Shown: piece after piece, positions 56,040 through 59,000 of the stretch | Layout of the letters: every line of letters starts with the position of its first letter | Numbering within the stretch: the stretch's first letter is position 1 | Origin: Longimicrobiales bacterium | GTDB lineage: Bacteria; Gemmatimonadota; Gemmatimonadetes; Longimicrobiales; Gaopeijiaceae | Reading direction: 5' to 3' | NCBI GenBank assembly: GCA_965204735.1 | Contig: OZ242008.1 | Coordinates: 3,328,001 to 3,392,000 of the forward strand | DNA length: 64,000 nucleotides | Position numbers and translations under genes: made by a program | Notes under the pieces: model-generated | What the model saw: only the letters and a program-made list of their open reading frames with translations | Told to the model about the DNA's origin: nothing | Databases searched by the model: none

Positions 56040-59000
56040 CTGTCTTCCATCGACGAGTCCAGCATCGAGCAAGCCGCACTGGAGTGGCTTGCCCACTCCG
56101 GCTGGACCACTGCGCACGGTCCCGCCTTGGCCCCCGGTGGTTCCGCGACGGAGCGCTCGGCGTACTCCGATGTCGTGCTGGCCTCCCGCCTCCAGGACGC
56201 AGTCTTCCGCCTCAACCCGGACTTGCCGGGCGCAACCCACGAAGACGCCCTCCGCAAGCTGACCCGCCCCGCCGGTCCCACCCTCGAAACCCGCAACCGC
56301 GCCTTCCACCGGATGCTGGTCGACGGCATCCCCGTCGAGTACCGCGACGCCGACGGCCGAATCCGCGGCGACCACGCCCGAGTCCTCGACTTCGATCGCC
56401 CCGCCAGCAACGACTGGCTGGCCGTCAACCAGTTTACCGTCGTCGAAGGCAAGCACACGCGCCGCCTGGACATCGTGCTCTTCGTCAACGGACTCCCGCT
56501 GGGCGTGATCGAGCTCAAGCATCCCAGCGACCCCGACGCCACCGTCCACACCGCTTGGTACCAGCTCCGGACCTACAAGGCCGAGCTGCCGACGCTCTTC
56601 GCCATGAACGAGCTCATGGGCGTGTCGGACGGCGTCGAGGCCCGGTTCGGCACACTCACCGGCGGCTGGGAGTGGTTCAAGCGGTGGCGCACCGTCGCCG
56701 GGGACACGGAAGCGAACCCGTCGGCGGTCCAGCTTCAAGTCGCGATCGAGGGGCTGTGCGCGCCCGAACACCTGCTGGCCATGATCCGGGACTTCGTCGT
56801 CTTCGAGGACGACGGAAGCGGGGAGCTGGCCAAGAAGATCGCGGGGTACCACCAGTATCACGCCGTTCAAGTGGCGGTCGGCGAGACCCTACGGGCAACC
56901 CAAATGCAGGCCCAAGACGAGGCCCCGCCCGCGCGGCCGTCCCGCCCCGTCGTCGTCCCGCCCGACCCCCGAACCCGCTGGGTCACGACTGCGCCGCTGG
57001 TCCCGCTCAAGGCCGCGGCGGGGGCGTTCGGCGACCCGCAGCACTTTCCGGCGGACGACTTCAAGTGGGCGAAGGTTCGCCCGCGACGCCCGCTCCGGCG
57101 GGGCATGTTCGTGGCCCAGGTCGTCGGGCACTCCATGGAGCCCCGTATCCCCGACAGCGCGTGGTGCCTCTTCGCCGCGCCGGTCGAAGGCACGCGCCAG
57201 GGCAAGACGGTGCTGGTCGAGCTGCAAGACGAGATCGACCCGGAGACCGGCGAGCGCTACACCGTCAAGCGGTACGAGAGCAAGAAGGCCCCGGAAGGCG
57301 GCGCTGACGACGCCTGGCGTCACGTCCGCGTCGTGCTGAGGCCCCGCAACCCCCGGTTCCGGCCGATCGTCCTCTCGCCCGAGCACGAGGGGCAGGTCCG
57401 GGTCGTCGCCGAGCTGGTGGAGGTGCTGGACCGCCACGCCCTGGACACCGCTCCCAAGCCGCCGCCCCCCGGCGACCGCCGCGTCGGCGTGGTGTGGCAC
57501 ACGCAGGGCTCCGGCAAGAGTCTGACGATGGCGTTCTACGCGGGGCGGATCGTCCGCGAGCCGGCCATGAAGAACCCGACGCTGGTCGTCCTCACCGACC
57601 GCAACGACCTGGACGAGCAGCTCTTCGCCACCTTCTCGCGGTGCAAGGACCTGCTGCGCCAGCCGCCGGAGCAGGCCAGCGACCGGGCCGACCTGCGCAG
57701 GAAGCTGGACCGGGAGGCCGGCGGCGTCGTCTTCACCACGATCCAGAAGTTCTTTCCCGAGCAGAAGGGCGACCGCCATCCGCCGCTGTCGAGGCGCCGC
57801 AACATTGTCGTGATTGCCGACGAGGCCCATCGCAGCCAGTACGACTTCATCGACGGCTTCGCGGCGCACATGCGCGACGCCCTGCCGGCCGCGTCGTTCA
57901 TCGGCTTCACCGGTACGCCCATCGAGCAGACCGACCGCAACACGCGGCACGTCTTCGGCGACCACATCAGCGTCTACGACATCCAGCGCGCCGTGGAGGA
58001 CGGCGCCACCGTGCCGATCTACTACGAGAGCCGGCTGGTCCAGCTGGCCTTGGACGAAGACGAGCGGCCCCGGATCGACCCGCAGTTCGAAGAGGTCACC
58101 GAGGGCGAGGAGACGGCCCGCAAGGACAAGCTGCGGGTGCGCTGGGCGCAGTTGGAGGCCGTCGTCGGGACCGACAAGCGGCTGGAGATGGTAGCGGACG
58201 ACTTGGTGCGCCACTTCGAGCAGCGGTGCGAAGCGCTGGAGGGCAAGGCGATGGTCGTGTGCATGAGCCGCCGCATCTGCGTGGACCTGTACGACAAGAT
58301 CGTGGCGAAGCGCCCCGATTGGCACGGGGAGGAAGACGGTCAGGGCGCGATCAAGGTGGTCATGACCGGCTCGGCCTCCGATCCGCCGGAGTGGCAACGG
58401 CACATCCGCAGCAAGGGGCGGCGGGAGGCGATGGCCAAGCGGTTCCGCGACCCGGCCGACCCGTTCCGAGTCGTGCTCGTGCGTGACATGTGGCTCACCG
58501 GCTTCGACGCCCCGTCGCTCCACACCATGTACGTGGACAAGCCCATGCGGGGCCACGGCCTGATGCAGGCGATCGCCCGAGTGAACCGCGTCTTCCGCGA
58601 CAAGCCCGGCGGCGTGGTGGTGGACTACCTGGGATTTGCGCCCCAGCTGAAGGAGGCGCTGGCCACCTACGCGACCAGCGGCGGCAAGGGGCGCCCGACC
58701 GTCGATCAGGACGCCGCCGTGGACGCGCTGCGCAAGCACTACGAGGTGTGCTGCGGCATCTTCCACGGCTTCGACCGGTCCCCGTGGGCCGAGGGCGCGC
58801 CCGCCCAGCGCCTGGCGCTTCTGCCCGCCGCCCAGGAGCACGTCCTGGCCCAGGAGAACGGGAAGGACCGGCTGGCCGACGCCGTGGACGCCCTGTCGAA
58901 GGCGTTCGCCCTGGCCGTTCCCCACGACTACGCCCTGGGCATCCGCGCCGACGTCGCCTTCTTCCAGACCGTGCGCGACTCCCTGGCCAAGCGCGCGCCC

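Follow-up and report, generated by a model that had tools for sequence, protein, structure and literature searches.

The type I restriction subunit (HsdR) encoded in the window, a 64,000-nt stretch of contig OZ242008.1 from a Longimicrobiales bacterium (the host), carries inside its motor domain an S24 domain that is real, conserved and apparently undescribed. The first-pass annotation had known of no characterisation of this architecture, and no HsdR-S24 fusion was found in the literature searched, the reach of which stopped short of supplements and most subscription papers. Neither LexA nor S24 is mentioned in PMC12707154, PMC11090510, PMC12839542 and PMC11754643, and in the accessible text of PMC3874165 LexA appears only in the title of a reference and the word "peptidase" is absent. 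We propose, as a reading about evenly poised between right and wrong, that RecA*-triggered self-cleavage would act as a hard-wired restriction alleviation turning off both the nuclease and the motor.

A single open frame spans 55947-59681 on the forward strand. Its first ATG, GTG or TTG start is a TTG at 56127. Similarity to HsdR already sets in at a CTG, position 56040, with Pfam HSDR_N aligned from residue 5, and GTG occupies the matching place in G002, G003 and L001. CTG 56040 is the probable start and, because the homology begins there, upstream of the TTG, residues were numbered from it. By its nuclease, its motor motifs, its TIGR00348 score (555.9 bits for a cut-off of 284.55) and the cognate hsdM and hsdS genes, the encoded protein is a member of the type I HsdR family. 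Pfam recognised HSDR_N, ResIII/SWI2_SNF2, T1R_D3 and T1RH-like_C domains; the nuclease motif residues are invariant in the 53 rows of alignment A2, and the SF2 motor motifs (Q motif, Walker A and DEAH) are present. Gln276 of EcoR124I, located 37 residues ahead of the Walker A Lys313, touches ATP according to the accessible part of PMC4454674. The Gln of YHQ precedes the Walker A Lys by 33-34 residues in the shortest insert-less relatives and, because of this similar spacing, Q272 is likely the counterpart of Gln276 and an ATP contact. The full-length model (pLDDT 72, pTM 0.50; Foldseek rmsd 25-31 A against EcoR124I) was used for domain boundaries only and not for orientation.

Table 1. Coordinates of hsdR, its S24 insert and the neighbouring genes in the window.
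Feature	Position	Strand	Basis
hsdM, cognate methyltransferase subunit	44102..45727	+	PF02384, PF12161, PADLOC MTase_I
HEPN-like gene, ahead of hsdS	45628-46155		
hsdS fused to N-terminal nucleotidyltransferase (MNT) domain	46134..47567	+	
AbiP2-like reverse transcriptase (RT), right behind hsdS	47649-49199	+	PADLOC 582 bits
Decayed partial hsdR-S24 copy, ~90% identical, without the 27-codon stretch bearing the catalytic Lys	49811..50359	+	
EruA-like NACHT protein	50461-54600	-	777 bits, below 1000 cut-off
PDC-S01 AAA/DUF4143 protein (ATPase)	54627-55862	-	
hsdR, type I restriction subunit, HindI-like C-terminus, 1213 aa (probable start)	56040..59681	+	Pfam, TIGR00348, PADLOC REase_I
PD-(D/E)xK nuclease domain	56040..56846	+	PF04313; alignment to EcoR124I nuclease motif
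Nuclease residues D144, E158, K160, QxxxY	56469, 56511, 56517 (D, E, K)	+	EcoR124I alignment
Q-motif helix of motor domain 1, YHQY...ETLRA	56847..56897	+	helix in predicted model
In-frame insert T287-P477, 191 aa: 32-aa N-linker, S24 domain, 14-aa C-linker	56898..57470	+	
S24 (LexA/UmuD/CI-type) autoprotease domain P319-L463	56994..57428	+	PF00717, model, structure matches
Predicted scissile bond Ala327-Gly328	57018..57023	+	sequence position
Catalytic Ser365 (LexA Ser119 position)	57132..57134	+	
Catalytic Lys410 (LexA Lys156 position)	57267..57269	+	
Walker A (GSGKS)	57507..57521	+	
DEAH motif	57819-57830		
SDH-family ClpP-like protease gene, low-GC cassette	59926-60800	-	
Second decayed copy: N-linker, AAAG motif, start of S24 domain	61066..61259	+	

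The first-pass annotation had placed an in-frame insert of about 185 aa between the nuclease and the motor. The frame was read correctly, but 191 aa separate ETLRA (A286) from GDRRV (G478), and the insert is in fact located inside RecA-like motor domain 1, behind the YHQY/Q-motif helix and ahead of the first strand and Walker A. The description of the site as a normally short variable loop was confirmed, the span from YHQ to GSGK being 224 aa in the host protein and 36-76 aa in 51/60 relatives (eight others were mis-parsed by the pattern and one carries the insert). By sequence and fold the insert is an S24 autoprotease of predicted activity, intact as had been claimed. On its own it scored 27.1 bits with PF00717 (cut-off 23.3), and 25.3 bits in the genome search, whereas the domain fell under the cut-off, at 21.2 bits, when scored within the whole HsdR. 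The AlphaFold model of the insert had a mean pLDDT of 91 and a pTM of 0.86, with about 12 N-linker residues that look ordered. Its top Foldseek and VIA-align matches were LexA, lambda CI and UmuD' (Z 11.9-10.2), the best one with Z 11.9 and rmsd 3.5 over 131 residues; the phage 186 repressor fold was matched too. The Ser-Lys dyad and the Ala-Gly site are thus found together in one HsdR chain, and A327-G328, S365 and K410 stand in the correct order at the coordinates first assigned to them. In the 66/74 internal forms that could be parsed, the N-linker has a median of 30 residues (range 13-39) and the C-linker a median of 10 (range 7-37).

Since the insert recurs in two of three same-genus genomes (91% and 84% identical) and both junctions are bridged by contigs of a separate study's sponge metagenome (run X4), it is not an assembly artefact. 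An intein was rejected, as Pfam reported no Hint family, the fold is that of S24 and the ends are variable linkers. A LexA/CI repressor identity was rejected as well: no HTH match was obtained in HsdR, and the host LexA is a separate gene.

With LexA, lambda CI and UmuD (MEROPS S24, PF00717) the domain shares the fold (Z 10-12), the Ser-Lys dyad, the Ala-Gly upstream of the Ser, the Phe at the F111 position and the Ala-Ala before the cut. It differs in having no HTH, in being tethered at both ends within a 135-kDa enzyme, in a longer loop before the catalytic Lys and in an Ala at L113; identity to the solved LexA, CI and UmuD chains is 17-29%, and regulation of an enzyme, not of transcription as for LexA and CI, is proposed. 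The host protein resembles EcoR124I HsdR (PDB 2W00, 6H2J) and HindI-like HsdR in nuclease, SF2 motor, C-terminal helical layout and all motifs, and these type I systems also have hsdM and hsdS in the locus. It departs from EcoR124I by the insert between the Q-motif helix and Walker A, and an S24 insert was absent from all solved HsdR structures matched. In the alleviation of EcoKI (by ClpXP) and of the P. aeruginosa type I system (by Lon-like proteases), proteolytic removal of HsdR likewise avoids self-cutting. There, however, the protease acts in trans on the translocating enzyme; for EcoKI no LexA cleavage is needed (PMC11109961), and a degron was not found according to the accessible part of PMC4231737, whereas sensor, protease and candidate degron would all be inside the host HsdR. 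IrvR/HdiR of Streptococcus mutans also undergo S24 autocleavage exposing degrons, as reported in the available portions of PMC5742171 and PMC7101444, but they are transcription regulators and IrvR is RecA-independent.

The A/C-G, Ser and Lys residues, the conservation of which had been put forward as a check, are all intact in 117/118 full-domain matches among the best 120 homologues and in 113/121 full-domain 50%-cluster representatives, figures that are inflated because the homologues were picked by similarity. Positions P2-P1 are Ala-Ala in 118/118 and about 113/121 of them, respectively. Four pairs were compared for the dN/dS of the S24 domain: three gave 0.24, 0.22 and 0.28, values similar to those of the remainder of the gene, and the closest pair, with few differences (10.5 synonymous changes), gave 0.57.

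In the best 120 homologues, S24 is found at the motor site in 73, at the HsdR C-terminus in 29 and at the C-terminus of type ISP enzymes in 18. The internal forms, all metagenome-derived, have source labels that include Armatimonadota, Acidobacteriota, Planctomycetota, Ca. Nanopelagicales and Longimicrobiales. A profile search gave 2119 cluster representatives at E<=0.001, and a Pfam scan covered 75 of the 150 listed. A recognisable partner domain was present in 40/75; it was N-terminal to S24 in 40/40 and was HsdM or HsdS in 0/40. The partners were type ISP (10), Schlafen-g3 helicase (5), HTH (5), DUF1998/MZB helicase (4), HsdR (4), IIG, PLD, McrC/LlaJI, AlbA_2 and HNH (2 each), type III (1) and ResIII (1). 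Searches centred on the host query placed S24 at the C-terminus in 100/107 further proteins (4 unparsed), and in 80 metagenome loci it was C-terminal in 72, internal in 4, probably internal at a contig edge in 1 and unparsed in 3. Neither set contained a protein with S24 inside the nuclease. Of 301 genomes from the host phylum, 44 have this HsdR family and 7 the S24 module, which was seen inside the motor only in the host (one of the seven unresolved). In 301 archaeal genomes this HsdR family occurs in 20 and the module as one 99-aa contig-end fragment; this comparison is uninformative as a RecA-free control, because even in the host phylum only 1/44 carriers have the insert.

Outside the window the host encodes another intact S24 of this subfamily (57% identical). 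It closes a 1988-aa DEAD/DUF1998-type helicase (G000:C1:762558-768524, +) located downstream of genes that read as methyltransferase-like and AlbA-like in translation. Two type III Res-like proteins (L142, L146), one of them on a viral contig, have a C-terminal S24 with AVA-T in place of AAA-G. P0138 and P0187 are HsdR proteins with a large internal deletion of the motor, yet with intact nuclease and C-terminal S24, and P0174 gave two S24 matches. The sole match for the module in a cultured isolate (Halomonas sp. PA16-9, L228:3977-6444) is a Schlafen-g3/DUF2075-like helicase the S24 tail of which is past the ORF end, apparently frameshifted. The HsdR relatives at L040:4017-7814 and L016:9170-12697 carry large inserts elsewhere in the motor, in a loop that follows TTIQKF; by reading alone the former resembles a DUF559/Vsr-type nuclease, and the latter is a Pro/Ser-rich repeat.

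An HsdR tree made without the insert comprised 62 rows, a subsample of 144, and excluded 5 rows belonging to a second HsdR subfamily. Five changes are required on it for the internal label and 6 for the C-terminal one, and a single clade of internal forms was rejected (p-AU 9e-109). On the S24 tree, which is weak with its 146 columns, one origin of the internal cassette is possible, and the S24 of P0058 groups with the main set while its HsdR does not. The best reading of these trees is one or a few insertions, followed by spread and loss through recombination among related hsdR genes. Mobility on phages or plasmids was rejected, with 0 matches in 50,697 phage records, 1 in 72,556 plasmid records and 2 viral contigs.

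The host encodes a recA with an MFG L2 loop (the L2-loop Phe), an intact lexA and clpX. A second LexA-like gene (G000:C1:2154222-2154455, -) has an HTH-like N-terminus and no recognisable Ser-Lys dyad or Ala-Gly. The RecA-pocket positions of LexA were taken from the accessible parts of Cory et al. (bioRxiv 2023.10.30.564768) and Gao et al. (PMC9926225). Phe357 is at the F111 position (Phe in 118/118 and 136/138), Ala359 at the L113 position (Ala in 112/118) and, counting from the catalytic Lys and not by structure, Tyr407 is at the V153 position (Tyr/Phe in 120/120 and 135/142), with the acidic D400/E402 nearby. A family-specific loop, DPETGERY, adjoins the catalytic Lys. The positions for the RecA Phe203 contact are largely kept and would be compatible with RecA binding.

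Before any cut the protein would act as an ordinary HsdR, its S24 domain projecting from a loop on the surface of motor domain 1. Upon DNA damage or recombination, RecA-ssDNA filaments would bind this domain and, by analogy with LexA, UmuD and CI, trigger the cut at Ala327-Gly328. Two pieces are predicted: a 35.9-kDa N-piece ending in PLKAAA, with the nuclease and the Q-motif helix, and a 99.7-kDa C-piece with the S24 core, the rest of the motor and the C-terminus. The earlier statement that cleavage separates endonuclease from translocase thus holds as to the nuclease, which goes with the N-piece, but is too simple, because the cut falls inside motor domain 1 and the Q-motif helix leaves too; without degradation of one of them, the two parts may remain packed together. 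As the 36-kDa piece, which includes the Q-motif Gln, ends in Ala-Ala like the LexA N-fragment, its removal by ClpXP is proposed, and LexA-like proteins bear ClpXP degrons beside the cut site (PMC5742171). The 100-kDa remainder would be left with neither nuclease nor ATP contact, so that cutting and translocation would both stop while unmethylated self sites are under repair. Where S24 is fused to the C-terminus, cleavage at this bond would mark the entire enzyme for degradation. Exposure of a degron would explain both layouts better than separation does, because C-terminal cleavage would separate nothing catalytic.

Proteolytic shut-off of HsdR following damage is established, according to the accessible parts of PMC3874165 and bioRxiv 2024.10.21.619520. 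An EcoKI nuclease mutant still kills clpX cells in the available text of PMC4231737, and a useful fuse must therefore also stop the motor, as a cut at the predicted site would do. The best reading of the purifying selection, the AG/S/K conservation, the kept pocket positions and the host recA, lexA and clpX is such RecA-triggered inactivation, and the partner standing always N-terminal to S24, and never being HsdM or HsdS, would also speak for it. Against it, the S24 domain is tethered at both ends, and a bulky fusion can block cleavage by RecA*: replacing the LexA N-domain by MBP markedly blocked it, and a 24-aa linker rescued it in part. The Ala at the L113 position would be unfavourable, Ala-Ala may be kept for cleavage alone, and the dN/dS of the closest pair and the similarity-based choice of homologues weaken the case. 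EcoKI alleviation is moreover independent of LexA cleavage (PMC11109961), and phage DNA processing may likewise generate RecA filaments, which could disarm the defence.

Inactivation could also come about without RecA, the lifetime of the enzyme being set by self-cleavage that is either slow and constitutive or driven by dimerisation (between the two HsdR of a complex, or upon collision of motors). The steric block expected from the fused bulk, the Ala at L113 and the DPETGERY loop next to the catalytic Lys would suit this, as would IrvR, which cleaves constitutively and independently of RecA in the part of PMC7101444 consulted and which may by analogy tell against a RecA trigger. That same text nevertheless calls IrvR the exception among characterised members, and conservation of the F111 and V153 positions and of the acidic residues in fusions to widely differing partner proteins suits one shared external trigger; we consider a RecA-independent trigger unlikely. 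The cut could conversely be an activation, RecA* freeing the nuclease for abortive infection in the internal form, as had been suggested at first, or an active enzyme in the C-terminal one. The nuclease being always on the N-side of the cut fits release as well, UmuD is a precedent of activation by cleavage, and hsdR shares its defence island with genes for an AbiP2-like RT and a NACHT protein. Activation would, however, switch the restriction nuclease on at the very moment when self sites lack methylation, opposite to the known control of type I enzymes (PMC3874165, accessible part), and would leave the freed piece with a degron-like Ala-Ala end. The same cut would give different products in the internal and C-terminal forms, and the insert is variably present among HsdR proteins of 70% identity, with no partner gene. 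Release of a free nuclease thus fits worse than restriction alleviation and appears rather unlikely.

Cleavage might also be incidental, S24 serving to dimerise two HsdR or to tether the enzyme to RecA filaments. The phage 186 repressor, which has the S24 fold, is not known to cleave itself. S24 domains do dimerise and bind the RecA groove, as described in the accessible part of PMC9926225. A binding-only module would need no Ser, Lys or Ala-Gly, yet 230/239 full-domain sequences keep them, which makes a purely non-proteolytic role quite improbable. It is more improbable still that the domain is a mobile passenger which derives from HTH-S24 repressors and which a permissive loop tolerates. The loop length does vary (36 to 76 aa), the insert is patchy (1/44 genomes of the phylum sample with this HsdR family) and is lost or replaced in places on the HsdR tree, and HTH-S24 proteins belong to the same subfamily. 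But the domain is under purifying selection, its catalytic residues are near-invariant, and it is retained in hosts labelled with at least five phyla.

RecA-triggered inactivation can be extended, in a reading we regard as somewhat doubtful, to motors with the S24 module telling self from foreign by repair state. A translocating HsdR that meets a RecA filament where a fork has stalled, or at a gap or D-loop, would be cut there and then, and the loss of nuclease and ATP contact would come before any break in the chromosome; type I enzymes cut at branches, a kind of structure like these, according to the available part of PMC2699502. The same cassette, a portable RecA-sensing degron, would govern many unrelated DNA-cutting immune enzymes and wire innate immunity to the SOS signal at the protein level. 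How type I enzymes spare their own unmethylated DNA during repair is an old question, and EcoR124I avoids self-cutting by another route than EcoKI (PMC3874165, PMC4231737). With sensor, protease and candidate degron all on one chain, such an HsdR would offer a one-gene system with the S365A, K410A and G328 mutants as clean controls, in which the motor-domain site is more telling than the C-terminal one because cap removal and enzyme destruction predict different products. If RecA-triggered inactivation is true, the reach of S24 control extends beyond repressors and UmuD to enzymes of immunity, and restriction could be tuned by phages or plasmids through the induction or blocking of RecA filaments.

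The hsdM-hsdS pair (44102-47567) lies 8.5 kb upstream of hsdR, with cargo genes in between, and both genes accompany an insert-bearing hsdR in G002, G003, L001, L148, L152 and L208. A dedicated partner gene was rejected, the neighbouring SDH protease, RT, AAA and NACHT genes not being consistently linked over 160 loci. No SOS box was recognised by eye in the printed upstream regions. Relatives of the AbiP2-like RT, with 41-43% identity, occur in the type I loci L040 and L208. In G002 the corresponding place cleanly lacks the protease cassette, whereas in G003 a cassette with homologous flanks and a 27%-identical protein is found upstream of hsdR. Two decayed hsdR-S24 copies flank the cargo genes in the host, and they look like leftovers of cargo insertion or exchange; G003 likewise has a decayed copy beside cargo (G003:C1:1734129-1734685). 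Tandem near-duplicate genes recur every 1.4 kb at positions 61761-64000 of the window, and the same 41-nt sequence stands ahead of each.
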